Origin: a virus
Lineage: Duplodnaviria; Heunggongvirae; Uroviricota; Caudoviricetes
IMG/VR virus record: IMGVR_UViG_2541047691_000016
Length of the DNA stretch: 39,162 bases
Reading direction: 5' to 3' (one strand)
Shown here: positions 1-38,961 of the stretch, one piece after another
Layout: each line of letters begins with the position of its first letter
Position numbering within the stretch: position 1 is the stretch's first letter
Program-made: the position numbers and the translations under genes
Notes under the pieces: generated by a model
Told to the model about the DNA's origin: nothing
What the model saw: only the letters and a program-made list of their open reading frames with translations
Database searches by the model: none

Positions 1-56
1 AGTCTTGAGTCTTGAGTCTTGAGTCTTGAGTCTTGAGTCTTGAGTCTTGAGTCTTA
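1..56 (-). repeat. Heptanucleotide tandem repeat (AAGACTC)n on the coding strand; at least 7 full units plus one unit cut by the window edge
   Basis: Plus strand reads agtcttg x7 (1-49) then agtctta (50-56); the array runs off the left edge so total copy number cannot be counted. Confidence 0.95.
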
Positions 57-60
57 ACAT
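1..60 (-). CDS. neuO: 5' end of phase-variable polysialic acid O-acetyltransferase (partial; gene body lies beyond the window)
   Basis: Minus strand reads ATG (60..58) TTA AGA CTC AAG ACT CAA GAC TCA ... = M L R L K T Q D S with no stop through the repeats; GGA 7 nt upstream as RBS; position next to a CUS-3-type endosialidase tailspike matches the known neuO locus. Confidence 0.6.
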   Translation of the reverse strand, partial: MLRLKTQDSRLKTQDSRLKT

Positions 61-76
61 ATTAGTATCCTACGTT

Positions 77-104
77 ATTTTACCACTAGTTACTTTTCTT
101 GTCA
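77..104 (-). promoter_or_regulatory. Putative sigma70 promoter for neuO (-35 TGACAA, 16-bp spacer, -10 TAAAAT) in an AT-rich intergenic region
   Basis: Hexamers read on the minus strand upstream of the neuO start; motif match only. Confidence 0.3.
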
Positions 105-213
105 TTAAAAAGCATTTAAATTTTTATATTTAATTTCGTTGACGTCAATGTTTTTTGCCAATGTACTTACTTCTTTATGTGATCAGTTCATATTTTTGAC
201 GCCAACGAAACAT

Positions 214-2649
214 TTAGTGCTTCCCTTCTATTAAGTCTAACCTAGCTTTTATTCTTTCTATTTCTCTGCGCTGCCATGCTGCCTCGATATAGAATAAGAG
301 ATCAGGTCTGACCCCCCATCTAGATCCTGCTGGCGTTATTTCAACGCGCTCAATGATGTCTTCCATTACCATCACTGGATTATCATCCTCATCAACAATG
401 ATGCTCCCGTCATTATCAGTCAGCGGCATTTCCCTTTGGCCAGTAATGACGTCATCATATACTGCGGGATAATCGTCATAGCAAAGAAAGGCATAGCGGC
501 ATGTTGTGCTTTCTTCTTCCATGAGTCCGTGAGAAATAAGAACATCACGAAGTTGCTGCGCGATTACACCATGATGTATCCTCGCCCCTTCTTCCCCCTT
601 TATAGCGACAGCGTTCAGCCATTTATAAGCGATATACCTGACGTCACCCCAGGCATCCAGCAATGTTTCGTCAGGAGAGACCGGCTCTGTCTTTAATGTT
701 CCGTCACTGGTAACCACAGGATTGGAGCCAAGATAAACTATCGAGAACCTGTTTCCCGGACCACCAAGAGCATTTACATTATCAAGATAAGGTTTAACAT
801 CTCCGTTCTCAAAAAGATGTTCGAGTGCGTTATATACCGCGCGACGTGGAGTACTGCTTCTGGAACCATGCAACGTTATCATTGCACCATCTGCTGAAGA
901 CGTTGTTTCACCGCCGCTAACGATTAATCTCTGAGCGGTAACATCATCAGACGGTACTTTCTTCGCAATAATGGCGTAATTACCCTCAAGTTTGACTTCC
1001 GCGCGAACTTGTCCTGATGTACCTGCATGGACAGTCAGTGACTGGACGGCAACATCATCTGTGAAATCAACGGGTACAGGAACCGTCCTCACGCCTGACG
1101 TCGACATAAAAGTAGGAAGCGTTCTGTTAGGAGTGGCTCCGTAGACAAAATCCCTTGAAACAAATTCTTCCTGTTTAATTTTCACCCTGAAACAATACAA
1201 ATCAGCCGGGTGACCATCGTGAACATAAGGATATTTTCTGTTGTTATCCCCTATGCTCCATGGGTTTAGAAAGTCTTCCCCACCGAAAATGTAGTACAGC
1301 CAGTTGTCTTTGATACAAACTGAACCAACACCAACCGCAGAGTTAACTATTCCGCCCTGATAAATCTGATCAGTAACATTAACCCACTCTACATTATCCA
1401 GACTCCACTCATTGACGTTAACTCTGGTCATAAATGTTCTTGGATAGTTTCCTGCATAACGGTTATCAGGTTCTCCTCCTTCCCACTCACCAAATGCGCG
1501 CTCACTGCCAAAAATAATCAGCTCATCGCCAACTTTGGCAAAAGGAAGGTTTGAGTGATGAACATTATTTGGGAAGCGAAGAGAATTCCATGATGTACCT
1601 AAATCAGAGCTTCTGTGCAATGAACTACCGGGTTGAGTACTTAATGTCCCCCTGGTCGTCAGATACAGAATGCCATCATAATATTTTACACATGGCTCAG
1701 ATGCATTCGCCTCATATTCTGCAGGTATGCGTCTGCGAACAAAGCTACCAGGAGAACCGAAAGCATCAGAGAAATAGAGTATCCCAAGCTCGCGTGGACC
1801 AATATCACCATTATGGTAGCCAACAGCAAAACTGTTATCGCTAATCGTCGCAAAACTGTGAATCTCAGTAACAGGAGTGCTTCCGTCAACAAAAGAAGGA
1901 ATAGTTCCAAGACTGGTTTTTCTCCATGGTGACGAGTGAAATGATGTACCAAAACTCCAGTATCTACCCTCGTTATTCTGATCCACATCCTGGGTATTTT
2001 GCGTCGTAACTGTAAAAGTATTTTTATCAATAACAGTAGTCACCGTCATATTCCCGGTAACACCTGTAACACCAGAGTTTGAGAAGTTGACAAAATCACC
2101 AGCAAATAATCCGTGATCAGTAATGCGAATATAAGCGACTTGCTGATTTGCTGCTTTCGTTATACCACCATAAACGCGAAGGCTGCGACTCATTGGGCGA
2201 TCCCACAACTCTGCAACCTGCAGTTTATTTCCGCTCACGGTCCGCGTCTCAATTACAGCAAAAAGGCGATTTCTGACAACCCCCATACTCATGCAGTGAT
2301 AGTTAACTGTGGGATAGTTTTCATGTAAATCTGTAAGCCATTCCGGCGTTGTCCAGGTCTTCCCGTCATCTCCTGAGCGAACCCATGCAACATGGAGGTT
2401 ATTTACACCATGGCGGTCTCCAGCCATAAAAGGCGCATAGATGACATTGTCATATACAAACGTTTTATCCTGCGTCCAGGCGTTGTACCACGGTGTATCT
2501 GTAATTTTAAATAACTCTCCCTGGATAAAATCTTCAGAAACATAAAAAAGAGGCTGACCCGGTATTCTCTCAAATAAAAAACGAGCATTTTTAAATCGAC
2601 TGACATCTGGAAGAGTTGATACTTTAAAAGTAAGCCCTCGCCCATCTAT
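214..2649 (-). pseudogene. Tailspike endosialidase (endo-N-acetylneuraminidase), catalytic and C-terminal chaperone part; separated from its head-binding domain by IS2
   Basis: Translation aligns along its length with endoNF-type endosialidase (IPGQPL, DGKTWTTPEWLTDLH, PMSRSL, NFSNSGVTGV, RIHHGVIAQQLRDV motifs as recalled); the ORF-track start at 2676 is a GTG inside the IS2 terminal repeat, so the first 9 codons are IS-derived. Confidence 0.85.
2645..2649. repeat. IS2 target-site duplication copy (TCTAT)
   Basis: Identical 5-mer directly flanks both IS2 ends (2645-2649 and 3981-3985). Confidence 0.85.
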
Positions 2650-2660
2650 TGGATTTGCCC

Positions 2661-3566
2661 CTATATTTCCAGACACCTGTTATCACTTAACCCATTACTG
2701 GCTTGCTGCCGTAGATATTCCCGTGGCGAGCGATAACCCAGTGCACTATGCGGATGCCATTCGTTATAATGCTCGAACGCCTCTGCAAGGTTCTTTGCTG
2801 CCGTTAACCCGTCTGGTTTGGGCATGACACTGATGTAGTCACGCTTTATCGTTTTCACGAAGCTCTCTGCTATGCCGTTACTCTCCGGACTCCGCACCGC
2901 CGTGCTCTTCGGTTCAAGCCCCAACATCCGGGCAAACTGCCGTGTTTCATTAGCCCGGTAGCATGAACCATTATCCGTCAGCCACTCTACTGGAGACGCC
3001 GGAAGCTCGTTGCCGAAGCGGCGTTCCACCGCTCCCAGCATGACGTCCTGTACTGTTTCACTGTTGAAGCCGCCCGTAGTGACCGCCCAGTGCAGTGCCT
3101 CACGGTCACAGCAGTCCAGCGCGAACGTGACTCGCAGTTTTTCTCCGTTATCACAGCGGAACTCGAACCCGTCAGAGCACCATCGCTGATTACTTTCTTT
3201 CACAGCCACTCTGCCTGTATGTGCCCGTTTCGATGGCGGTACAGCAGGTTTTCGCTCAAGCAACAGCGCATTCTGGCGCATGATCCGGTAAACACGTTTG
3301 GCATTGATCGCAGGCATACCATCAAGTTCTGCCTGTCTGCGAAGCAGCGCCCATACCCGACGATAACCATACGTGGGCAGCTCTCCGATAACATGGTGTA
3401 TACGGAGAAGCACATCCGTATCATCAGTGTGACGACTGCGGCGGCCATCCATCCAGTCATCGGTTCGTCTGAGAATGACGTGCAACTGCGCACGCGACAC
3501 CCGGAGACAACGGCTGACTAAGCTTACTCCCCATCCCCGGGCAATAAGGGCGCGTGCGCTATCCAC
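2661..3566 (-). CDS. insD: IS2 transposase OrfB (InsD, DDE integrase domain)
   Basis: 301-aa ORF recognised as IS2 InsD; overlaps insC as expected for the -1 frameshift fusion. Confidence 0.9.
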
Positions 3567-3889
3567 TTTTTTGCCCGTCCATATTCAACGGCTTCTTTGA
3601 GGAGTTCATTTTCCATCGTTTTCTTGCCGAGCAGGCGCTGGAGTTCTTTAATCTGCTTCATGGCGGCAGCAAGTTCAGAGGCAGGAACAACCTGTTCTCC
3701 GGCGGCGACAGCAGTAAGACTTCCTTCCTGGTATTGCTTACGCCAGAGAAATAACTGGCTGGCTGCTACACCATGTTGCCGGGCAACGAGGGAGACCGTC
3801 ATCCCTGGTTCAAAGCTCTGCTGAACAATTGCGATCTTTTCCTGTGTGGTACGCCGTCTGCGTTTCTCCGGTCCTAAGACATCAATCAT
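3524..3889 (-). CDS. insC: IS2 OrfA (InsC, HTH regulator/transposase N-terminal part)
   Basis: Translation from the ATG at 3889 ([18 protein letters not shown]...) matches IS2 InsC; the ORF-track start at 3934 is an upstream extension. Confidence 0.88.
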
Positions 3890-3964
3890 CTGCTCTCCAA
3901 TGACTAGTCTAAAAACTAGTATTAAGACTATCACTTAAATAAGTGATATTGGTTGTCTGGAGAT

Positions 3965-4495
3965 TCAGGGGGCCAGTCTATCTATCTTTTCACCACCTGT
4001 TGCAACAGAAAGTAATTCTGATAGAGCTGATGTATCATCATGAACACCATCACCAATAGCCCCCCACCCTCTTACATCATAACTGTCTCTCCATCTTGCT
4101 ATCTGAAGTTTTGGGTATTTATTCGCTCCATCTGTGTCTTCTAATTGCTGCCGTAACTGATCAGGATCATACTTCAGCACATTAGGAAAATAGAACTGCT
4201 GCGCACCATACGCATCATAAACAGCCATAGAATGGCCTTGCACGGTAACGAATTTGGCAATCTGTCCGTTATATACCGGATATCCAGCAGCGTTAATGAT
4301 TATTGGTTGCGAAACAGGAACGTGAGAACCGTCTTCATTCTCCACATAGACCTGAATCTGGTTTTCTGTATTTACAGGATCAGTGTCAATTTTACCGATA
4401 TAAATTTTGCCATTGGCTACGGCTTTAAAAGAACGCGCCATAGTGAAGAGTTGCGAAGGCATCGATACGATCACATTGGCTGTAATGTCTGTCAT
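3965..4495 (-). pseudogene. Tailspike N-terminal head-binding domain (P22 gp9-like); native sequence is 4495..3986, then the frame runs into IS2 and stops at 3965
   Basis: [40 protein letters not shown]... closely resembles the P22 tailspike N-terminus; the last residues (DRLAP) are IS2-encoded. Confidence 0.88.
3981..3985. repeat. IS2 target-site duplication copy (TCTAT)
   Basis: See partner repeat at 2645-2649. Confidence 0.85.
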
Positions 4496-4553
4496 TTAAT
4501 TTGCTCCAGATACAAGGAATCGCCGAAGCATGGCTACGGTGAATTTTGGGCAT

Positions 4554-4576
4554 AAAAAAACCCAGCCGAAGCTGGG
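4554..4576 (-). terminator. Intrinsic terminator downstream of ant
   Basis: Minus strand: CCCAGC-UUCG-GCUGGG hairpin followed by a U7 run. Confidence 0.6.
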
Positions 4577-4595
4577 TCGTTGCGTTGGTTATCTA

Positions 4596-5498
4596 TCAGT
4601 AGTTATGTACTGAAGGAGGTAATTCTTTATTCTTAAGTCTCATCCATGCGGAAAGATTCGTTGGTCCGTCTGGCTCATTAATATCAACATCTCGTGTATG
4701 GTTGATTAAAACATCTCTCGCCATTCCGATAACATACGAGAATTCATGACCGTAGTCGTAGCATCTGCCGGAATAGTTCGATTGAATTTGTTTTAGCGCC
4801 TGATACAGTTCGCGGAATAATGCCTGTGAGCGGTTGGCATAATCCCATAGCCATACAAGGCTGTTTACTTCTTTTGCAGAAAGCTCGTTGGTTTTCTTCT
4901 CTTGTTTGCCGATGAACTCACCTTCAAGCACTACCCTGTGGATGTACTCTACTGCTTGTGGTATCTGAGATGCATCAAGCTCTTCAATACTTTCCACATT
5001 GAAACGCTGATGAATCATTGCATAAGCTTCTGGGTACATTAGATGCTTTTTGCTGACTAGCATATTTACAGCATCACGAAGCGGAGTCCTGTCATCAACA
5101 GATGTTTTCTTCCGTGCATTTGCTGCCTCTCCCTTTGTCCAGTAGTCATGCAGCACAGTAAAGCATTCTTCCTGGTACTGAATCAGTTTATCGCGGATGT
5201 CAGCACGAACTTTCTCAGGGTTGATGCTGAACAGCCATCCATTTAACTTCTTCAAAGGAAGGCAGAGTAGCTTACGAAGCTTACCATCAGCGGCAACCAT
5301 GTTCATATGAACACAGTTGAATTTGCTAATCTGCTTCATGAGTTTTGTTTGCTGCGTTGACCAGCTCATTCCGAGGTTTTCAACGATTGGCTTCATCGCA
5401 ACATATGCAACTCCGGCAGCCATGGCGGTGATAATTTGCTGACCGTTGAATGGCACGTAAGAGGTGTTCACTGCTTCTAAAATTGCTATACTATTCAT
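4596..5498 (-). CDS. ant: Antirepressor Ant (P22 Ant-like, 300 aa)
   Basis: [26 protein letters not shown]... from the ATG at 5498 with GGAG RBS; the ORF-track start at 5564 is an in-frame upstream extension. Confidence 0.88.
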
Positions 5499-5577
5499 GT
5501 TGGTTTTTCTCCACGGATTTACCGACAACCGAAGCCCTGACTGTTCCAGCAGTTGGGGCTTCACTGTTTTGATTTCT
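5499..5577 (+). ncRNA. Candidate sar-like antisense RNA complementary to the ant ribosome-binding region
   Basis: Extended -10 (TGcTATACT, 5484-5492) on the plus strand inside the ant 5' end; GAAGCCC/GGGCTTC hairpin (5531-5562) followed by a U-rich tract; arrangement matches P22 sar. Confidence 0.4.
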
Positions 5578-5730
5578 TTGCCGCATCAAGCATCACTTCT
5601 GAAAACGTGCGCTTGCCACTGAATACTCTTTCTCTTCTCAATTTTTCGTTCGTGCCAAATGATTCGCCATGAACAAAATTTGGTCTTAAAATGGTAATCG
5701 CAATCTCTTTGACTACTGCATCCAAGCGAA

Positions 5731-5883
5731 TCACACCGTTACCCCCTCTCTCTTCAGGCTGTCTATCAGGCGCTTGATAACCTCTGAGTTAAACGACCTG
5801 CACTCTTCCTTTGCCCTGCTACCGATAGCATCCTTTAACGACTGCGGCATCCTTACCAAAATCTTACTTATTTCTTTCTCCAT
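5731..5883 (-). CDS. arc: Arc-like ribbon-helix-helix repressor (50 aa)
   Basis: MEKEISKILVRMPQSLKDAIGSRAKEECRSFNSEVIKRLIDSLKREG resembles P22 Arc; GGAGGG RBS upstream of the ATG at 5883. Confidence 0.8.
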   Translation of the reverse strand: MEKEISKILVRMPQSLKDAIGSRAKEECRSFNSEVIKRLIDSLKREGVTV

Positions 5884-5997
5884 GTTACCCTCCACGCAAA
5901 CAACTCTTTTCGAATACAAAAGATAGCAAAGTGAGTATATCTAGTCAAAATTTTTTTGCATACACTTTGCTATCAAATTGAATACCAAAGGTGTTAT
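5884..5997. promoter_or_regulatory. Divergent Pant/Pmnt control region with candidate Arc/Mnt operators
   Basis: Lies between divergent arc and mnt; perfect 11-bp inverted repeat ATAGCAAAGTG (5923-5933) / CACTTTGCTAT (5963-5973), each embedded in AGATA...TATCT-like symmetry. Confidence 0.5.
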
Positions 5998-6246
5998 ATG
6001 GCAAAGGGTGTGTCAATTTCTCCAACTACGGTAAGAATCCCTGAATCTTTACGCGAGGCTCTTGCTGTCAGAGCATCAAAAAATGGTCGCTCTGTTAACT
6101 CCGAGATCGTCATGATTTTGCAAGCCGCGATTGATGAAGATAGGTCGCCAAAGTCAGTTGAGTCATTTGCTCAGCAAGAAGCTGATAAATTCAAAGAGGC
6201 GCTACTTGAGACGCTAAAGACCATGTATGCTAAGGATGAAAAATAA
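5998..6246 (+). CDS. mnt: Mnt-like ribbon-helix-helix repressor (82 aa)
   Basis: MAKGVSISPTTVRIPESLREALAVRASKNGRSVNSEIV... with a C-terminus like P22 Mnt; the ORF-track start at 5956 is an upstream extension. Confidence 0.75.
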   Translation: MAKGVSISPTTVRIPESLREALAVRASKNGRSVNSEIVMILQAAIDEDRSPKSVESFAQQEADKFKEALLETLKTMYAKDEK

Positions 6247-6782
6247 TGCTGCACACAATTCATTTCTTATGCCCTGTTAACACTGCCACTGTTGGGCAAC
6301 TTCAGAACCACTGTCTCACCGCATTATCTCAAGGCGCAACTGAATTAAATATCCATATATCAAGTCAGGGAGGGGAAACTGCTGCTGGCTTTACTGCGTA
6401 TAACTTTCTTAAGTCACTCCCTGTTACCGTTAGAACTCACAACATAAGCAATGTTGAATCCATAGCTAATATCGTTTTCCTGGCTGGCTCAGAACGTTTC
6501 GCAAACCCATTATCAAGATTCCTGTTACATCCTCTATTATGGTGCTTTGCCTCCCCAGCCGCCGACCATGCCAGATTGAGAGAGTACGGGAAATGCCTCG
6601 ATAACGATCTTGATCGCTTCGTTGAGACGTTCAATATCGACATCGGAACCCATATTAGGTGGGCATCCCTGATAGCAGACTCGACCATTTTGGATGCTAA
6701 CAAGGCTCTTGAGCATGGCATAATTAATTCCATAAAAACTGCAAGGCTGGCATCCAATCAGGCAAACTGGTGGGTTGTTTGA
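6246..6782 (+). CDS. Truncated ClpP-family (S14) serine peptidase-like protein, 178 aa, translationally coupled to mnt
   Basis: ISSQGGETAAGFTAYNF...SNVESIANIVFLAGSERFANPLSRFLLHP aligns with the ClpP core (INSPGG..AG..IYD..GQAASMG..LLTAGAKGKRF..NSRVMIHQP), with Ser, His and a candidate Asp in register; about 40 N-terminal ClpP residues are absent; start overlaps the mnt stop (TAATG). Confidence 0.65.
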   Translation: MLHTIHFLCPVNTATVGQLQNHCLTALSQGATELNIHISSQGGETAAGFTAYNFLKSLPVTVRTHNISNVESIANIVFLAGSERFANPLSRFLLHPLLWCFASPAADHARLREYGKCLDNDLDRFVETFNIDIGTHIRWASLIADSTILDANKALEHGIINSIKTARLASNQANWWVV

Positions 6783-6807
6783 TGGGTAAATCATGATTAC
6801 TCCTTAT

Positions 6808-6834
6808 AAAAAACCCACCTGACGGTGGGTTTAG
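6808..6834. terminator. Bidirectional intrinsic terminator between convergent genes
   Basis: AAACCCACC-TGAC-GGTGGGTTT hairpin with A/T runs on both sides; overlaps the stop codon of the 149-aa gene. Confidence 0.65.
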
Positions 6835-7280
6835 TCAAACATAGTGTTTCTAAAGTCTCTCGCATACCCTGCTAACACTCTCATTCTATTATGATTGTTA
6901 GCAGACATGTGAGCTACAGGATGAAAAAGAGCAATCAATGAATACCTGTTCTCATCAAAAAGATTTTGTGCATAAACGAGAGCGGTATTGGATGTTTTAT
7001 GCCACTGCAACTTTTGCGGTGTGCTGATATCTGTGCCATTTTTTATTGGCTCAAATTTATTTTCACCAATTGCTAAATGAAGGTGCATAAGGCCTGCATC
7101 TTCAATATCAGGAGGTCGATGATAAGAGGTGTCTCTGCCAAAATAGCTGGGCAACGTTCCCGTAGACTTGTAGATGATAAAATCATCTACAAGTGTTTGT
7201 TTTAAATCAGGAAACTCAACAAAAACCGGGGAGAAAAAATAGTCAAAACTATCCTGATTATATTCCACGGTTACTTGCAT
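6831..7280 (-). CDS. Hypothetical protein, 149 aa (distal gene of the AT-rich immI two-gene operon)
   Basis: ORF with GAGG RBS 8 nt after the upstream stop; AT-rich; no family recognised. Confidence 0.6.
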   Translation of the reverse strand: MQVTVEYNQDSFDYFFSPVFVEFPDLKQTLVDDFIIYKSTGTLPSYFGRDTSYHRPPDIEDAGLMHLHLAIGENKFEPIKNGTDISTPQKLQWHKTSNTALVYAQNLFDENRYSLIALFHPVAHMSANNHNRMRVLAGYARDFRNTMFD

Positions 7281-7288
7281 GTTTTACC

Positions 7289-7855
7289 TCAGTGGAAGTT
7301 ACCAGAGTGAAACACACGAGTCCCGTGCTCAGCAAGCGCACGCAAACCAGCCATATCTACGGAACTATCAAAAACAACCGGAACACATGAGCGTTGTTTA
7401 ATAAGACTATTCAGGTTGGTTACGGCAGATCTGGCATCAGCAACAACGATATAGATATCTCTTGCGATCTCTTTAAAATCAGCAGAAGCTTCTTTGAATA
7501 CCGATTTCATTGCCCCTTCAAGTCCTCTCAATTGATGCTCTATCAATCGAGACTTTTCTGGTTCAATGATAGACAACACATTGTCTACATTCTCATCGGT
7601 AGCGTTTGCAAGAACACGATAAGCGTATTTCAGCATTCGAGACAATTCTTTAATCGAAGACACCGCCTCATGAAGCTCATCATTAGCCCGTTCACTGCTG
7701 AATGAGGATTGATGGTAAGCGTGCTGAACGTTATCAGTAACAACCACCTCACAACTGAACGCAGAAGCTTGCTGTAATAGCAAACCTATTGCGACTCCAG
7801 CTTTGGCAGCGTTCAAGCTAAACATTTCATCAATCCCATTAGTCTCATTGCTCAT
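7289..7855 (-). CDS. Hypothetical protein, 188 aa (proximal gene of the immI two-gene operon)
   Basis: ATG at 7855 preceded by AAGGAGG with a 5-nt spacer; the ORF-track start at 7885 is an extension; no family recognised. Confidence 0.6.
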   Translation of the reverse strand: MSNETNGIDEMFSLNAAKAGVAIGLLLQQASAFSCEVVVTDNVQHAYHQSSFSSERANDELHEAVSSIKELSRMLKYAYRVLANATDENVDNVLSIIEPEKSRLIEHQLRGLEGAMKSVFKEASADFKEIARDIYIVVADARSAVTNLNSLIKQRSCVPVVFDSSVDMAGLRALAEHGTRVFHSGNFH

Positions 7856-8030
7856 ACAAACCTCCTTCTTATCGGAGATTATCAATAGCTATGCATCCAT
7901 TGAATACACGCTATGCGCAATAAGTTTACGTCACGTGATATCATTATGCAACCACCGTTCTATCACCGACTAACTTTACTCCCACTCCTATACATCATCT
8001 GGTATCCTGCGCAAAACTAAGGAGGTTGGT

Positions 8031-8381
8031 GTGAATGCTCAGTCTGTCATCATGGTTTTCCTTGGGCTGATTGTCGCAAAACTATATCCAGACTGGTGGA
8101 AAGGGGCATTAGCTACTGTCGCCATCTATTTGCTTTTATCCATCGTTAAGCGATCACTCGCTGAGACCGTAAATCAAGCAAAACGTTTCTCATTTAAGAG
8201 TTTAATAAACTATGTTACTGGGCTTATTTTTTGCCTTTCAATTCTGATCGCTTCGGCTTTTTTGCCCGTATCAATAGCTAATTTTTTTGGCGCACCATAT
8301 GAGGTAGGTTATCTATTCTCTGTTTCCTGTCTTGCCATTGCTCTTCTTTACCTGTGGACGAGATCAAAGAATAAAAATTAG
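8031..8381 (+). CDS. Small multi-pass membrane protein (116 aa), divergent from the two-gene operon; positional analogue of P22 sieA
   Basis: GTG start with TAAGGAGG RBS (8018-8025); three to four hydrophobic segments; no sequence-level identification. Confidence 0.55.
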   Translation: MNAQSVIMVFLGLIVAKLYPDWWKGALATVAIYLLLSIVKRSLAETVNQAKRFSFKSLINYVTGLIFCLSILIASAFLPVSIANFFGAPYEVGYLFSVSCLAIALLYLWTRSKNKN

Positions 8382-8398
8382 CCATCCGTGGCTGCCAG

Positions 8399-10414
8399 TT
8401 ATTGAGCTTCTTTTTGTGATGCCTGTGCGACTCTGGTGAGCGATTGTGTGACCGTACTGATCGCTCTGTCATATGCTGTGCTACCTTTTGGCGTATTTGC
8501 CAGACGTAACAAGGCATTTCGTATAACAGGGCTTTCGTATGCCTTCGCAGCTCCTCCTACGACACCAGCAGCAGGAACAACAAACGCAGCCGTTTTTAGC
8601 ATCCCCGCTAATACTGCTGCGTTTATGATGCCACCACCAACTAACAATCCATAAAGCTGCTGACCATTTAAGTTTTGAACGTTCGCTTTTGCCGCGTGTC
8701 TTGTATCGTTGAGGTATTTAATAACGCCGTCCAGTTCCTTTCCATGTACGCCTTTAAAGAAAGTTGCTGATTGCTTCCTGTTCCGGTGTAACGCATTAAT
8801 AAACTTTTCAACACTAATATTTCCAGACGGATCAGTCGCCTTATCTACAGCATTCTGAACTATGGCTGCTCGTGCGTTTTGCCTACCATTGTCATCCAGA
8901 AGCCTGTAAAGCTGAGAACGTTCTGATGGGTTTTGGCTAAAAACGAGTTTTGTTACATCCTCAGGTGTAGCCTTGCCGCTGGCTATTGCCTTTTGAACGC
9001 GCGTTCTTCCCATCATGTCATTGAATCTAGCCCATGAGCGATCAACCCTAGACATATTGGCAGCTTCTTCTGAGCCTAGTTTTTGGGATACTGCTTTTTT
9101 CATATCCGCTGTATATGCCTTGTAGACAATATCGCTGGCTTTCTGGAGCGTGTCTTTATCAACAGTCTCGTTTGAATTCATGAACCGCTTTCGAAGGTCA
9201 GTTCTGTTTTCTCTCGCCAGACGCAGGTCATTGGGTCCGCTGGTGATATCGTCTTTAAATTGCTGCAAGACTTTTACCGCGGCTCTATCCTGAGATTTGC
9301 CCGGGCGGCTTAACACGGCAATCTGATTGTCGATAGCTTTTACCGTGTTTGAGAGATCGACAGGGGTATCCCCCATAGCGTCAATTATGCGGTTATATCG
9401 CTTTCCTGCTGCCTCAATGAATTTTTGTTGCCCTTTAGTCGCAGATTCATAAAGCTGTTTATCAGAAATGCCACCCAGACCATCGCTAAATGTTCTGACT
9501 AAATTTTCTCGTGCTTGTTGTTGATTCAGCCGATTCTTACCGGTTCCAAAAAAAGGAACTCTTTCGCCTAATGTCTGAGCCTGACTCTGCATAAAGGTTT
9601 TATCTTTCAGCGTGTCACTGGTCATTAACGGCAGGTTTCTTTCCGACGCAAAATCGACAGCAGCCTTTGCTTCCGGTGACATCTCACCGCGAACAGCCCT
9701 GGAAACCGCACTAACTGTATTTTCCAGCCCCTTGCCAACACCACCAATGCCAGCAGAAATTACCGTTTGTGCAGGATCAATATCTTCTCCGCCAGCAAGG
9801 CTGGTGCCACCCTGTAGTGCTAAATCTGTAGCAGCTGATTTCCCTATGGCACCAAGCACCGTTCCAGCCCTGCCCGCTGGTGTGAACGCTAACGCATTAG
9901 CAAGAAACGAAGTCAGGTCTTGCGGTGATAAACCTGGCTTGTTCAGGGCATAATCACCGGATGGCAGGGAAACGATAGTGTTACCCTTCTCATCCTGCCT
10001 TAATTTCGCCCCCATACTCTGAAGAATCTTTTCCTGAGACGCGTCGGAGCCGAAAAGTTGAGACCATCCAGCCTTCAGGGCATCCATGCTTAGTGAGTTC
10101 AACTCAGGGGCAGCCCCAACATTTTGCAGTCTCTCCATTTCTGGTGTCATTCGGCTTTCACCGGTAACGGCATCGCGCATTGCAGCACCTAAAACAGCCC
10201 CTTGCTCAGCAGAGCGATCTAGTCCTTCCTTCTGCTGAGTGGCAAGCTGTGCATATCCTGATGCAAGTGAGTTGTCTGCTGGCGATTGCTGAACACCTTG
10301 TTGTGTTGGCGCTGACTGACCAGCAAAATACTCATCAATGGCGGACCCAATATCTTCCGTGCTCGTACCATCAGGAAAGGTAAATGTCTTACCATTTGCA
10401 GTTACTTTCATCAT
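8399..10414 (-). CDS. Ejection (DNA transfer) protein, P22 gp16-like
   Basis: 671-aa ORF last in the gp7-gp20-gp16 order after the tail needle; Gly/Ala-rich, typical of E-proteins. Confidence 0.8.
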
Positions 10415-11862
10415 TCCACCGTAAATTGAATGCCTGATTTTGACGTGTAGCTACCTCCTGCTGATTGCTGAGTAGCTGGCTGTTGCCTTGATGATTTCTT
10501 CCCGCCATTACCAACATTAACGTTATATTGCTGGTTGTAATTGTCGGTATATTGCTGAATGTCGCGCATTGATTGTTGCAGCGCTTCAGGACTTGAGAAA
10601 TCAGGCTTTGGCATACCCTGAAAATACCTATTGGCCTCTGCTTCGGTGTTGATGCCAGATGCCCCCATATCTCGGGCTGCTGCAATCCCCTGATTTTGCA
10701 TTTTGCCCATGATTCGCTGTGCAGCGTTGTATGGCCTCCTCTCCTCAACACCAGATGCCCTGCTACGAATATCTGCACCAAGAGCAAAAGAACCTGAAGA
10801 ACCTGTAATACCTGTCATGAAGCCAAGATCGTCAATTGATGCGCCAGAAATTGCATCAAGATCTTTCTTCATTTCGTAATTCTGTGCATTAGCTGCCGAT
10901 GTAGCCGGAGCAGCAATAGAACTGGCGGGGACGCGAATCATATTGCCCTCGTTGTCTATTCCTTCGTAGAACGCATTAGCACCAGCGCCGTGAAGCTTCC
11001 TACCAACCGTTACCGTTCTGCCATCTGCCAGTTGCACAACATTCTCCCCGCCAGCATCAGGACGACCTCGAACACGAAGATATGTCTTTTGTTGCTCTGG
11101 AGACAGGCTGTTGAAATATTGATATTCTTTAACAGATGCAGGAACAGCACCTCCAGCAGTGCGCAGGGAGTTTTCACGGCTAACAGCAATGCTTTGCGCC
11201 TTTAAACCTTCCCCAGCTTTATTGCTGCGAATCGTCTCTGCCAACTTGCCACGCTCAATATCCCGACCTTCCATTTGATCTTTGATATCGAAATACTTCT
11301 CATGACCGAGAGAAAATAGTGCCAGATTACCTGCGAAGTGCTGGAAGCCCTGCGGGTCATTAACCTGCATTTCCGCAATAGTTTCTGGAGGGATACCTAA
11401 ACGACGCATCTCCTTTTCGTTATCCATCATGAACCTGCCAAATGCACCCGGACCAAGCGACGAAGCGACCTGAGCCTTAAGCGCCAGATTGCCAAAATCA
11501 TCCCGCTGGGCGTCATCGACATACCCCATGCCTTTACGGACTTCCTCAAACTCTTCGGGGAATGCTGTAATAAGATTACGCATCTGCTCCCTGTCGCCGG
11601 ACGCATAAGCATCCGCATAACCTTTCTGGAATGCCGCTTTACGCTCCTGCTTTTGCTGCTGCTTATAAATATCAGCAACTCCAGCCAGACCACGAAGACC
11701 TGTCAGAGCAACGTTATTTGCACCTGATCGAGCCAGTTCATTGTTTTCGCGGATCAGACCAAGCGTTGCGTTAATGTCGCTTGCCTTTGGCGCATTCTCA
11801 TTTTGCGTACCGATGCCAGCCAGAAACCCACCAGAATTAATACCCTGTTGCCACGTAGCCAT
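10411..11862 (-). CDS. Ejection protein, P22 gp20-like
   Basis: 483-aa ORF, position and size match P22 gp20; overlaps the gp16 start. Confidence 0.8.
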
Positions 11863-27547: not shown

Positions 27548-27965
27548 TATTGGCGTCCTGCATCATGAGAAATACAATCATGGCGGCGCGGAGTGGAGAT
27601 TCACCGCAGAAGTAGTAGCCAGGAATATTTTCCCATTCCCAACAACCTTCCTCTAAATCACCTCCTGACCATGCGCACCATTCTTTTTCCGCTGTCATCC
27701 ACATAGTGCTGATTTTGCTTTCAGTGATAATTGGCCACGCGTATTCAGGATTATTGCAAGGATTGAAGCAATTTCCGTTTGAAGAACGGAAGCCATTAAT
27801 ATCCCTTTTTTGCGTCTGCCAAATAGGACCTCTTTCGTCAGTGGGGATCTCAGAATCGAAGTCTGCTTCGTCATCAGGTATGAAGAAATGCTCCTCCATA
27901 TCTAAAGCCTCACATACTCGTCTGTTAATTTCAAAATCACTTAACTGTGAATAATCCATTGTCAT
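27540..27965 (-). CDS. Hypothetical nin-region protein (141 aa from the ATG at 27965)
   Basis: ATG overlaps the ninE stop (ATGA); Trp- and Cys-rich; no confident family. Confidence 0.55.
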
Positions 27966-28138
27966 TTCCTCGCACGATGTCTTAGCAACCGGATATCCCA
28001 CAGGTGAGCCGTGTAGTTGAAGGTTTTTACGTCAGATTCTTTTGGGATTGGCTTGCGTTTATTTCTGGTGCGTTTCGTTGGAAGGTATTTGCAGTTTTCG
28101 CAGATGATGTCGGTGATACTTCGTCGCTGTCGCCTCAT
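27962..28138 (-). CDS. ninE: NinE
   Basis: [50 protein letters not shown] resembles lambda NinE; ATG at 28138 overlaps the ninB stop. Confidence 0.85.
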
Positions 28139-28545
28139 TCGTACCTCCTGTCGGTAAATCTGACACCCTGACCAATAGCCCATGCTGTTGTGTACTCGAT
28201 CAGACTTGCCATACGCTTCACACTCATCTGCGCGCTGCTTTCGCGAATGTTGACGTATTCGCCTTCAAGCCCGGGCAAAACATCAGCTTCCTGTTTTGTT
28301 GCCACTGCATGACCGCTGATCAACAAAACCTTCCATTGTTCTGGTTTTAACCATTTATCGCGCCACTGAACTTGCCTAGCGATATCTGCGACCATCGCGT
28401 GAAATTTTGCGTTCTGGTCAAGGTTGCGCTTGTAGTCAGTAATGCGGATGGTGACTGGCTTGTCTTTATCGAGTGGTGTTGCGAGGATGGCATTTATTGC
28501 AGCTTGCTGTTGTTGCTTAGTTCGGAGGAATATTGTTTGCTTCAC
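28135..28545 (-). CDS. ninB: NinB (Orf-family recombination mediator)
   Basis: 136 aa; NinB-like sequence and first position in the nin region. Confidence 0.8.
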
Positions 28546-28556
28546 TGAATACTCCT

Positions 28557-28748
28557 TTATTTTTTATGCCTGTAACCCCATTCTTCCAGCAACCTTGCGG
28601 CGTACCACCCAAGAAACAAAGGAAAGAACATTACAATGAGATATTTCCCGCCACGGTCAATGTTCGAAATTGACCAGATTACGATGTAACCAGTGCAGGA
28701 CAGGAATATTACAAACCCCAAAAAGCTACTTCGTCGACTCATGCTCAC
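28557..28748 (-). CDS. Small membrane protein (63 aa, two predicted TM helices)
   Basis: Hydrophobic segments FLGFVIFLSCTGYIVIWSI and YLIVMFFPLFLGWYAA. Confidence 0.45.
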   Translation of the reverse strand: MSMSRRSSFLGFVIFLSCTGYIVIWSISNIDRGGKYLIVMFFPLFLGWYAARLLEEWGYRHKK

Positions 28749-29059
28749 TCCTTCACTTTGATTCCAGCGGCGCGGATAGCCTCTACATCGCTTTCGTATT
28801 GCGATTCTGCACCTGAGTCATAGCCAATGTGATAATCACCGGGAAGTGGGCCTTTCTTTGGCTTTTGCAGCTCAATTTCAATAGCTGCTCTCGATGCCTG
28901 CCACGTTTGCCAGTGGCCTTGAACATCGTCCATCACGTATTGACCACCAATATCACCACTGCCAATTTCATGGTGATTTTCAGGGTAACGGATAAGGTCT
29001 GAAGATTCGCCCCCCACGTCGTAACCAACTCTCTTCAAACTGGCATCTGCTTTCGTCAT
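28745..29059 (-). CDS. Hypothetical protein (104 aa), acidic and Gly-rich
   Basis: ORF with a plausible ATG; its 5' part overlaps a Cys-rich ORF in another frame. Confidence 0.45.
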   Translation of the reverse strand: MTKADASLKRVGYDVGGESSDLIRYPENHHEIGSGDIGGQYVMDDVQGHWQTWQASRAAIEIELQKPKKGPLPGDYHIGYDSGAESQYESDVEAIRAAGIKVKE

Positions 29060-29162
29060 CTTTCATAAGGCAGTCACATTCAATAAAAATCGGCTCTCCC
29101 CAAGGAGTAGAACCTCCGCTATCACACATTCCTGTGTTATTGCACTTTTGGCACTTGCTCAC
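28980..29162 (-). CDS. Putative Cys-rich zinc-ribbon small protein (60 aa), overlapping the 104-aa ORF
   Basis: CxxC...C...CxC pattern in the first 31 residues; the overlap means only one of the two readings is correct over the shared 80 nt. Confidence 0.3.
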   Translation of the reverse strand: MSKCQKCNNTGMCDSGGSTPWGEPIFIECDCLMKDDESRCQFEESWLRRGGRIFRPYPLP

Positions 29163-29174
29163 ATTAACCTCCGA

Positions 29175-29381
29175 TTAACTCACAAAACGCCACGCCACTT
29201 TTGCTACGACAACAGGCATAACACCGATAATCACCCACAGAAAAATGCTACCGAAAAGCACACCAACCAGGTCTTTACCTTCGCCTACCAACCGGACAAA
29301 ACTGCTGGCAACCACAATGAACGTCGCCACCATCCACATAGCACCGAGAATCCTCAATGCAGAAAAAATCAACTCAACCAC
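29175..29381 (-). CDS. Small membrane protein (68 aa, two TM helices)
   Basis: Almost entirely hydrophobic ORF immediately downstream of the helicase gene. Confidence 0.45.
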   Translation of the reverse strand: MVELIFSALRILGAMWMVATFIVVASSFVRLVGEGKDLVGVLFGSIFLWVIIGVMPVVVAKVAWRFVS

Positions 29382-29453
29382 GATTTACCCTCCCCCAAAT
29401 AAAAAGGCCTGCGATTACCAGCAGGCCTGTTACAAGCTCAGTGATGTAGATGG

Positions 29454-34219: not shown

Positions 34220-34690
34220 ATGACAAAATCATGGAGCGTACCTTTTCCTGAATCAGAAACTGAACATGATGGAATGCCTGTTTTCTGGAGATTCCAAGCG
34301 ACAGTTGAAGAAGATGGAATCAAAATATTCGCACTTCAATATATAGCTTTTCATCAGACAGAGCATTATGCATGGTTGGTTCCTGCGCATTGGATTGTTA
34401 ATTTTAAACCAGCACCAAATCAGTGGTTACAGGAATGGAAACAAAGGAGAAATAGATATGCAATTAAGAAAGTAGCAAAAAATGCAGAAAGATCTTTTGC
34501 ATTCCCGACGAAGAAACTTGCCATTGAAAGTTTATTGCGCCGGAAGAAATACCATTTGATGAGAATCAAACAAGATTTGGCTGTTGTATCAACTCTTGTT
34601 GATGGGATGAAGAATATTGATACATCAACACCAGGTATTGAATATAACTTTGGACACAACCAAGAAACAGAAAACTGGGTGTTTTATTAG
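34220..34690 (+). CDS. Hypothetical protein (156 aa), AT-rich gene between N and tL
   Basis: ORF with lower GC than its neighbours; no family recognised. Confidence 0.55.
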   Translation: MTKSWSVPFPESETEHDGMPVFWRFQATVEEDGIKIFALQYIAFHQTEHYAWLVPAHWIVNFKPAPNQWLQEWKQRRNRYAIKKVAKNAERSFAFPTKKLAIESLLRRKKYHLMRIKQDLAVVSTLVDGMKNIDTSTPGIEYNFGHNQETENWVFY

Positions 34691-34804
34691 TACGAATAAG
34701 CACTGTGTATTCATTCCAACGAGTGAATACACGGAGCAATGTCGCTCGTAACTAAACAGGAGCCGACTTGTTCTGATTATTGGAAATCTTCTTTGCCCTC
34801 CAGT

Positions 34805-34830
34805 GTGAGGGCTTTTTTATATGCATACCA
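34805..34830 (+). terminator. Intrinsic terminator (tL1-like)
   Basis: GCCCUC-CAGUGU-GAGGGC hairpin followed by U6. Confidence 0.7.
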
Positions 34831-34884
34831 ATAACGCTTCACTCGAGGCGTTTTCGTTATGCAATCAAACAGAAGGAGCATCCT

Positions 34885-35055
34885 ATGCAACAGTTCGCTA
34901 TTGCAGGGGCGGCATCGGTTCGCCCTTTCAACCCGATTTTATCGGTACAGCATTCACGAAAAAACATTTTAACCGGAGCAGACTTTAAACAACCAAGAAT
35001 GAAAAGCTTGCTCGAAAAGCTTTGGGATATTTTGAAACAACAAGGCCGTCCATGA
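34885..35055 (+). CDS. Small hypothetical protein (56 aa)
   Basis: ATG at 34885 with AAGGAG RBS; the ORF-track start at 34780 overlaps the terminator and is rejected. Confidence 0.45.
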   Translation: MQQFAIAGAASVRPFNPILSVQHSRKNILTGADFKQPRMKSLLEKLWDILKQQGRP

Positions 35056-38916: not shown

Positions 38917-38961
38917 ATTGCCTGATTTGCAGGTTCGATTCCCTATTCGGAGATAGCACTC

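Follow-up and report, generated by a model that had tools for sequence, protein, structure and literature searches.

P22 heads that lack the gene 9 tailspike are stable and non-infectious, and they become infectious once purified tailspike is added. In the P22-like prophage CUS-3 of E. coli RS218, the tailspike is an endosialidase encoded by the uninterrupted, 2946-bp gene siaK1 (ABQ88383.1; CP000711.1 2526..5471), and the GenBank entry for this gene records endosialidase activity by direct assay (IDA, PMID 16689790). The insertion sequence IS2 (IS3 family) moves by a copy-and-paste pathway via figure-of-eight and minicircle forms (PMC3219604, PMC3299598), which leaves the donor copy in place (PMC3219604). 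IS2 has been described with a 42-bp IRL (5'-TAG...) and a 41-bp IRR (5'-TGG...), and with an A6G motif at which a programmed -1 frameshift joins orfA to orfB (PMC3299598). Here we describe a CUS-3-like prophage in which siaK1 is split by IS2 after codon 170.

The endosialidase tailspike gene of a CUS-3-like prophage

The DNA analysed here, hereafter the window, is a 39,162-nucleotide stretch (IMG/VR record IMGVR_UViG_2541047691_000016) whose prophage is a mosaic relative of CUS-3. Between the neuO repeat and the attR core it runs collinear with CP000711.1, with 97–100% identity, save for three replaced segments (4929–11658, 27595–29425 and 34223–35051) that differ from CUS-3. Gene order is that of the CUS-3 type (P22-like, Lederbergvirus): int, neuO (AAGACTC repeats), siaK1, ant/immI, ejection, tail, head, lysis, Q, replication and immC genes, and attR. 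The heptad array occupies window positions 1–55 and the integrase lies outside the window, int being seen only in sister loci. CUS-3 and the window share the neighbours of the tailspike gene, with ant upstream, and the neuO poly-psi repeat and then int downstream. Apart from the tailspike gene, all morphogenesis genes in common with CUS-3 (those for gp7-, gp14-, gp26-, gp10- and gp4-like proteins, coat, scaffold, portal and terminases) and all lysis genes are full length and 99.3–100% identical to their CUS-3 counterparts; two ejection genes are different alleles. Across the whole set of virion, lysis, replication and immunity genes found in both prophages, siaK1 aside, every gene is full length at 97–100% identity, except for some nin-region genes that are divergent alleles (37–96%). 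The IS2 insertion is the only visible lesion of the prophage.

The tailspike region comprises the following features:

4559..4578, minus strand: terminator-like hairpin with T-run, between ant and the tailspike start
3986..4495, minus strand: 5' fragment of siaK1, codons 1–170, with Head_binding, a linker and the first 25 residues of End_N_terminal (4060..3986)
4495..4157, minus strand: P22-type Head_binding domain, residues 1–113 (Pfam E 5e-66)
214..2649, minus strand: 3' fragment of siaK1, codons 171–981 plus stop
2649..2524, minus strand: rest of End_N_terminal
2523..1174, minus strand: beta-propeller, with a nested beta-barrel at 2190..1942
1173..709, minus strand: tail-spike stalk
708..526, minus strand: Peptidase_S74 chaperone

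By sequence, the interrupted gene is siaK1, which codes for the endosialidase tailspike of CUS-3, and the prophage around it is CUS-3-like and of the P22 type. Aligned to intact siaK1 of CUS-3, the two flanks of the insertion show 100% and 99.8% identity and overlap by exactly the duplicated bases, so the resemblance is not due to chance. Within the gene, both 3986..4495 and 214..2649 match CUS-3 at 100%. At the protein level, the 5' part matches CUS-3 at 172 of 172 residues and the C-terminal part is 99.6% identical, with mismatches confined to the IS2-derived overlap. The hairpin at 4559..4578 suggests that the tailspike gene would be reached by read-through or antiterminated transcription.

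In a Pfam search of the restored protein, all six tailspike families scored far above cut-offs, in the order Head_binding, End_N_terminal, propeller with inserted barrel, stalk and Peptidase_S74; as sequenced, this order is broken within End_N_terminal. The head-binding domain found PDB matches in the N-domains of the P22, Sf6 and HK620 tailspikes. A query made up of the N-terminal extension plus the propeller's first half aligned with chains of Endosialidase F from K1F (1V0E/1V0F, 3GVJ-L, 3JU4) and with a further endosialidase chain (4HIZ), at E about 1e-108. Pfam assigns the rest of the propeller, the barrel, the stalk and the chaperone to Endosialidase F as well as to the window protein.

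As sequenced, no single reading frame links the particle-binding and catalytic modules, since IS2 parts codons 1–170 from codons 171–981. The first-pass annotation had the element separating the head-binding domain from the catalytic and chaperone part; the two parts are indeed split, but the break does not fall at a domain boundary. Head_binding ends at residue 113, and the cut after residue 170 lies within End_N_terminal (residues 146–212), 25 residues beyond the point at which the solved fragments matched here start to align (residue equivalent 145/146). The fragment downstream of IS2 thus starts only at residue 171. Genes broken in this way are called as two unrelated ORFs, which affects prophage annotation.

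Structure, spread and reversibility of the IS2 insertion

The boundaries proposed in the first-pass annotation, a complete 1331-bp IS2 at 2650–3980 between TCTAT copies, proved correct to the base:

2650..3980, minus strand: complete IS2, 1331 bp, transposase read in the same direction as the tailspike gene
3980..3939: IRL, 42 bp, beginning TAGACTGG
2690..2650: IRR, 41 bp, beginning TGGATTTG
3981..3985: target-site duplication, copy 1, TCTAT on the plus strand and ATAGA on the coding strand
2645..2649: target-site duplication, copy 2, TCTAT
3524..3889, minus strand: orfA (insC), 121 aa, HTH_Tnp_1
2661..3566, minus strand: orfB (insD), 301 aa, HTH_21, rve and rve_3, with a TAG stop at 2663..2661
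3566..3572, minus strand: AAAAAAG (A6G) slippery site, single copy, at IS2 position 409

This copy is 99.9% identical to annotated InsC/InsD copies across all 1331 bp. Its ends agree with those described for IS2 and form imperfect inverted repeats (30 identical positions and one indel in the end alignment), and orfA and orfB overlap at the A6G site. The mechanical ORF list gives orfA as a longer, 136-aa GTG ORF starting at 3934. Compared with IS2 of E. coli K-12, the copy is ordinary, at a new site and with no difference of note. Its target was siaK1 nt 511–515 (codons 171–172), a sequence that occurs once in intact CUS-3 and is present here as a perfect 5-bp duplication.

As sequenced, the 5' ORF stops at 3965 and encodes 176 aa (tail ...KIDRLAP), the last six residues of which come from the duplication and the IS2 left end. 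Because it ends in IS2-encoded residues, this product is possible only with IS2 at this site. It was found on seven independent public contigs, namely in GCA_000456265.1 and GCA_964052555.1 and on five short-read Logan contigs; the seven include two assemblies that run right across the IS2. The one Logan contig that was fetched (L007) ends 14 bp past the 176-aa gene, about 29 bp into IS2. Wrong placement of IS2 by scaffolding or gap filling, for which the unfinished source scaffold with its N-gap in the nearby neuO repeat array might give cause, is thus extremely improbable: the element is bounded by a perfect duplication, a second, independent assembly is identical across the IS and also resolves 48 heptad repeats, and the IS2-specific product recurs on five short-read contigs, the fetched one stopping just inside the element. 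The insertion is real and the allele is rare. None of 5,426 complete E. coli genomes gave a full-length match to it, searches for the exact junction in IMG/VR viral contigs and in JGI metagenome contigs returned no matches in either, and a full-text literature search found no description of an IS2-broken siaK1 allele.

Deletion of 2650..3985, that is, of IS2 and one TCTAT copy, yields a minus-strand ORF (original 4495..214) that is 2946 nt long, with 981 codons before its stop and none of them a stop, as had been predicted, and the restored ORF is identical to intact CUS-3 siaK1, also of 981 aa. The accompanying suggestion that IS2 "would excise in frame" is uninformative, because the frame returns whenever a simple insertion that made a target duplication is taken out; the restored frame says only that the insertion was clean, and an IS2 donor copy stays in place (PMC3219604). 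We asked whether the allele could be a reversible switch, in which precise excision at a useful rate restores tailspike production. The identity of the excised gene to CUS-3 siaK1 is consistent with such a switch, yet the copy-and-paste pathway keeps the donor copy (PMC3219604, PMC3299598), slippage would have only the 5-bp repeats to act on, and all seven contigs carry the insertion (consensus assemblies would hide a mixed population), all of which leaves the switch with a negligible probability. Reversion would require a rare, host-mediated deletion between the two 5-bp repeats rather than action of the transposase.

Probable loss of tailspike function and the fate of the 3' fragment

A simple loss-of-function insertion of IS2 in siaK1, disabling attachment of the phage to new hosts, is very probably what this locus represents. 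On this reading, one IS2 copy transposed into codons 171–172 of siaK1 in a small E. coli K1 lineage, leaving a gene with at most two possible products. The first would be the 176-aa stub, made up of the head-binding domain, the linker, 25 residues of the next domain and six foreign residues, and the second a 3' fragment without a proper translation start. The head-binding and polysialic-acid-cleaving modules are no longer on one polypeptide, so induced particles would package DNA without a working tailspike and would be unable to bind or digest the K1 capsule.

By analogy with P22 lacking the gene 9 product, such particles are predicted to be spikeless and non-infectious, and the two systems share a homologous N-terminal head-binding domain. 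With IS2 as the only visible lesion, a tailspike-deficient, non-adsorbing particle is a sound expectation. The first-pass annotation had also called these particles tailless, which overstates the defect, as only the tailspike is lost and the genes homologous to those for tail hub and needle are undamaged. Unlike in P22 lacking gene 9, a head-binding stub may be made here, and it could fill the positions meant for tailspikes. Head-binding domains of the P22 type are common, the 5' region here matching 1,177 of the 5,426 genomes, and a further P22-like prophage in the cell could in principle lend a compatible tailspike. The prophage would be confined to vertical inheritance, with its cargo gene neuO staying beside the broken gene.

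A different outcome was also considered, in which IS2 donated a start codon to the catalytic part. A GTG inside the IRR (2674..2676, minus strand) opens an 820-aa ORF (2676..214) that encodes nine IS2-derived residues (MSGNIGANP) followed by tailspike residues 171–981. In-frame stop codons lie upstream of this GTG, and it is the only in-frame start ahead of Met245 (window 2427). If translated on induction through coupling to orfB termination, the 3' fragment might fold, trimerise via its C-terminal chaperone and be released as a virion-free K1 capsule depolymerase. The ORF is open and keeps all that follows the break, from the remainder of End_N_terminal through propeller, barrel and stalk to Peptidase_S74; its GTG precedes the stop of orfB by 13 nt, making termination-reinitiation geometrically possible; and the phage late operon or an IS2 promoter transcribes in the right direction. 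Moreover, a near-identical endosialidase module in a different prophage type begins at residues 171–174, implying that this stretch is exchanged as a unit.

Expression of the fragment nevertheless appears poorly provided for. The best anti-Shine-Dalgarno pairing of the GTG is just -3.1 kcal/mol, a consensus scan flags no promoter-like site at the IS2 right end, and a reporter study detected no promoter activity at this end (PMC12095673). A hybrid promoter, formed from the outward IRR -35 and a -10 in the flank as at ampC, requires a spacing of 17 bp (PMC3219604). We infer both the outward -35 assignment (TGGAAA) and the exact Pjunc hexamers from PMC3219604; at 17 nt this -35 faces TAGATG, a poor -10 without the final T, and the consensus scan finds no such promoter. 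The alternative starts, Met245 and Met290, both sit within the propeller and neither has a Shine-Dalgarno sequence. The protein itself would lack residues 146–170, a stretch present in each of the five solved endosialidase chains that matched, and insertions in other strains lie at varied positions, giving no sign of selection for keeping a functional 3' module. The catalytic part could be translated from the GTG, as had been proposed, but with almost no Shine-Dalgarno sequence and no promoter a free depolymerase is weakly supported, and we regard it as very unlikely. Were it true, an insertion sequence would have turned a structural gene of a phage into a new gene for a secreted enzyme, and the enzyme would begin at the point of natural exchange of endosialidase modules among phage types.

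Recurrent breakage of siaK1 in K1 prophages

Mobile elements also interrupt siaK1 of this prophage type in phiv205-1 (MN340231.1) and in strains 2022E04-002, M15, FY26 and N58, with elements and positions that differ from those in the window. Lesions elsewhere in siaK1 comprise an IS66-family element at nt 208–215, IS3 at nt 496–499, IS903B near nt 753 and an IS3-family element near nt 945, besides an IS-mediated deletion, 3' remnants and deletions with other end points. In N58, an IS-associated deletion took almost the whole prophage and kept the siaK1 3' end, neuO and int. These independent lesions in other strains indicate that breakage is a common fate of the gene, and together with the IS2 allele they suggest visible damage to about one in ten of the K1 endosialidase prophage genes found in complete genomes.

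The IS2, IS3 and IS66-family insertions all lie in the first 516 nt, which at first looked non-random, as though this part were a hot spot or breaks near the 5' end were selected; this idea was dropped after a wider sample added IS903B (about nt 753), the IS3-family element (about nt 945) and the deletions. The IS3 of 2022E04-002 lies 12–15 nt upstream of the IS2 site in the same orientation, and the 12-nt distance between the two sites remains a curiosity.

Recurrent loss of the tailspike might also be favoured in K1 strains, grounding the neuO prophage or avoiding self-inflicted capsule damage, so that the allele would be adaptive and the prophage domesticated. At least five independent IS events and several deletions in siaK1 of different strains could be read this way, as could the sparing of the siaK1 3' end, neuO and int by the N58 deletion and the sister isolate with the same IS2, which keeps neuO in frame with 48 heptad repeats. 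However, 181 of the 194 genomes carrying the module retain at least 80% of it in one place (search with the catalytic part), and contiguity was kept in 153 genomes in a separate search with the CUS-3-type 5' region. The IS2 allele itself is absent from the complete genomes and from the viral and metagenome contigs searched, and neutral erosion of a prophage would be expected to leave just such a scatter of insertion sites and deletions. Selected domestication is therefore unlikely, and the insertion is most likely ordinary, recurrent prophage decay.

The siaK1/IS2 case shows no new mechanism and matters modestly. For K1 phage typing and phage therapy, it means that infectious CUS-3 would be missing from the lysates of these strains. 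The allele also offers a natural system for measuring precise IS2 loss, in which revertants would form plaques. For the biology of E. coli K1, it adds one more route by which the neuO-carrying prophage CUS-3 would turn non-transmissible while keeping its capsule O-acetylation switch.

The IS2 insertion in the endosialidase tailspike gene

The endosialidase tailspike gene siaK1 of this CUS-3-like prophage is interrupted by a complete IS2, and the ORF listing over window 1-5000 returned the following products around the insertion.

Open reading frames at the insertion
4495..3965, minus strand, 176-aa ORF
3934/3889..3524 and 3566..2661, minus strand, two overlapping transposase ORFs
2676..214, minus strand, 820-aa ORF

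The first-pass annotation had described a tailspike gene split by IS2 into two parts that rejoin in frame, and our script reproduced its coordinates and arithmetic exactly: the inserted element spans 2650..3980 (1331 bp) between TCTAT copies at 2645-2649 and 3981-3985, and deletion of 2650..3985 leaves a 2946-nt ORF of 981 residues plus stop with no internal stops. In the comparison with the intact CUS-3 tailspike that it had proposed, the flanks of IS2 matched siaK1 (CP000711.1 2526..5471) at 100%, and the restored gene had the same length, 2946 bp; the GenBank entry for CUS-3 siaK1 records endosialidase activity with direct-assay evidence. In a whole-window BLAST against CUS-3, window 1-2649 aligned to 2313-4961 and window 3980-4928 to 4956-5904. 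The two aligned pieces share only the duplicated bases on the intact gene, which is the signature of simple transposition.

The 1331-bp middle was 99.9% identical over its full length to an annotated IS2 (InsC/InsD) in a phage collection search. Pfam domains (HTH_Tnp_1 in orfA; HTH_21, rve and rve_3 in orfB), a single AAAAAAG slippery site at IS2 position 409, and imperfect terminal repeats of 42 bp and 41 bp, starting TAGACTGG and TGGATTTG in an end alignment, all agree with the published description of IS2 (PMC3299598).

The last residues of the 176-aa product are encoded by the duplication and the IS2 left end, so IS2 must be at this site for the product to exist. A look-up of the exact sequence placed the product on seven contigs, two of them in NCBI assemblies and five from the short-read Logan set. 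Both NCBI assemblies (GCA_000456265.1 and GCA_964052555.1) span IS2 and match the window at 100% identity over 10.5 kb. The one Logan contig fetched (L007) ends 14 bp past the 176-aa gene and includes about 29 bp of IS2; a repeat boundary is expected to break a contig in this way. An assembly artefact, a possibility raised by the annotation, is thereby excluded, and the insertion is borne out. The IS2 allele of siaK1 is rare: none of 5,426 complete Escherichia coli genomes had a place covering at least 80% of the 4282-bp query, and the exact junction had no match in IMG/VR or JGI metagenome contigs.

The annotation had also stressed that IS2 would excise in frame. Deletion does restore the frame, but this is true of any clean insertion minus one duplication copy, so the statement adds nothing beyond the boundaries and the weight on it was misplaced. 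IS2 moves by a copy-and-paste pathway (PMC3219604) in which the transposase does not remove the donor copy, and siaK1 reversion would need slippage, a rare event, between two 5-bp repeats that lie 1336 bp from each other.

Position of the break and fate of the 3' fragment

Pfam domains of the restored protein
Residues 1-113, Head_binding
Residues 146-212, End_N_terminal
Residues 213-662, End_beta_propel
Residues 324-406, End_beta_barrel (nested)
Residues 663-817, End_tail_spike
Residues 818-878, Peptidase_S74

The break follows residue 170 and therefore lies inside End_N_terminal (146-212), not at the domain boundary previously proposed. Alignments to five solved endosialidase chains (1V0E, 3GVJ, 3GVK, 3GVL, 4HIZ) begin at residue 145 or 146, and 25 residues common to all five are missing from the siaK1 3' fragment (codons 171-981). 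A non-P22-like prophage type (SCU-125, EC67, IAI39 and others) encodes a 1039-aa endosialidase that is 95% identical to the siaK1 product over the aligned region, continuously from residues 171-174, and only weakly similar upstream. This continuity indicates that the stretch downstream of the IS2 site has been exchanged between phages as a unit. It favours the earlier view of the fragment as a module. The near-identical stretch extends from gene nt 522 to nt 2914 (residues about 174-971), with its left recombination end point within about 10 nt of the IS2 site and of an IS3 insertion site in another genome. In this prophage type (SCU-125, L008 3303-6422; EC67, L009; IAI39 and others), the enzyme has a different N-terminal module and adjoins holin and GH19 lysis genes.

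The annotation had further suggested that the 3' fragment might yield a free depolymerase. The 820-aa ORF does open at the GTG at 2676 (minus strand), which has stop codons immediately upstream in its frame; no other in-frame start precedes Met245 (window 2427), itself already within the propeller. The 16S anti-SD paired at best at -3.1 kcal/mol with the 17 nt preceding the GTG. This start is followed 13 nt later by the orfB stop (2663..2661), and re-initiation at the GTG after orfB termination is conceivable, if inefficient. A promoter scan of the minus strand reported no promoter-like site close to the IS2 right end. The outward -35 of the right inverted repeat (IRR) and the -10 at the tip of the left one (IRL) form the minicircle junction promoter, for which a 17-bp spacer is mandatory (PMC3219604), and fusion promoters are possible where a suitably placed flanking -10 meets the IS2 -35 (PMC9330008). 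Here, the hexamer 17 bp from the IRR -35 (TGGAAA by our own reading) is TAGATG, which lacks the final T, and the IS2 right end was picked in a reporter study for undetectable promoter activity (PMC12095673). Given this promoter evidence, the fragment would be transcribed only by read-through, presumably from the weak promoter of IS2 or from the antiterminated late operon. The poor anti-SD pairing and lack of a promoter-like site weaken the idea, and a free depolymerase is very improbable.

Next to the IS2 right end, the DNA (A TAGATG, window 2620-2680, minus strand) resembles the minicircle junction, in which one spacer base is followed by TAGACT of IRL. The target ATAGA/TGG holds the first bases of both IS2 ends, which could hint that IS2 targets end-like sequences, or else be coincidence.

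The remaining prophage genes

A gene-by-gene check of the genes that CUS-3 shares with the window found the head, tail-hub, needle and lysis genes and a gp7-like ejection gene at full length (99.3-100% identity to CUS-3), as were Q, O, P, cI, cro, cII, N and erf (98-100%). Divergent alleles were found for ninB, ninE, ninF and one hypothetical gene of the nin region (37-96%), and the immI region and two ejection genes (window 4929-11658) are different alleles from those of CUS-3. The IS2 insertion is the sole visible lesion, and its reading as a loss of function is sound. From this gene content, it is reasonable to expect that induction would give DNA-filled particles without working tailspikes, for which P22 gene 9 mutants are the model; "tailless", as first proposed, is too strong for a prophage with intact hub and needle genes.

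By its sequence, this is a mosaic prophage related to CUS-3 and not CUS-3 itself. Segments 4929-11658, 27595-29425 and 34223-35051 have no CUS-3 DNA match. Pfam marks from sister locus L005 place a different ant, Arc-family genes, genes for a ClpP-like protease and a YafO-family toxin, and different ejection genes of the gp16/gp20 type in the first of these. A P22-type antisense regulator of ant, sar RNA (RF00262, 83.9 bits; 5499-5565, plus strand), overlaps the antirepressor gene at its 5' end, and the product of that gene shares just 59% identity with CUS-3 Ant. Window 38927-38942 aligns with the attR core of CUS-3, the final 220 bases (window end 39162) being host flank, and no tRNA gene was found inside the window.

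At the opposite end, window 1-60 (minus strand) opens in the poly-psi array of neuO, the O-acetyltransferase gene beside siaK1, with 7.9 copies of AGTCTTG (AAGACTC on the coding strand); the neuO ATG is at 60..58, and the gene extends beyond the window. The GCA_000456265.1 scaffold has an N-gap within this heptad array (L005 10436-10582), and the first base of the window comes directly after that gap, so the window was probably taken from this assembly. In the other assembly with the same IS2 (L006 10441-10776), the array is resolved at 48 copies, more than the 14-39 quoted for phase-on strains (PMC8653822), and NeuO is in frame (328 aa). Two promoter-like sites between the tailspike stop and the neuO start (window 77-148, minus strand; TTGACG-17-AAAAAT, and ATGACA-17-TAAAAT with upstream TG) are candidates for the neuO promoter.

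siaK1 lesions across complete genomes

The catalytic part of siaK1 occurred in 194 of the 5,426 complete genomes, 181 of which keep 80% or more of it at a single place, and the CUS-3-type 5' region was contiguous in 153. Among 60 of the 194 genomes, taken at even spacing, seven (roughly one in ten) were visibly disrupted.

Independent lesions of siaK1 in other strains and phages
phiv205-1: IS66-family element with 8-bp duplication, nt 208-215
2022E04-002 (L004 2999-4257): IS3 in the same orientation, nt 496-499, 12-15 nt upstream of the IS2 site
M15: IS903B, about nt 753
FY26: IS3-family element, about nt 945
N58 (CSF isolate; L012 1745-6743): IS3-family element with truncated emrY on one side and, on the other, all that is left of siaK1, its final 1416 nt; neuO, int and tRNA-Arg kept
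Three further genomes: 3' remnants covering 8-21%

N58 looks like an IS-mediated deletion that took nearly the whole prophage and some chromosome and kept the O-acetyltransferase. An early impression of a 5' insertion hot spot was dropped after this census of lesions across siaK1. IS2 and IS3 are different IS3-family elements, and their closeness within the 2946 nt of siaK1 could be due to a local preference for target sites. Selection for grounding a neuO-bearing prophage is a possible cause of siaK1 loss; the lesion pattern is as predicted by ordinary prophage erosion. Our literature search found no published description of the IS2-siaK1 allele. Both of its components are known at near-100% identity and IS inactivation of prophage genes is commonplace, and the allele is a new instance of a known phenomenon.
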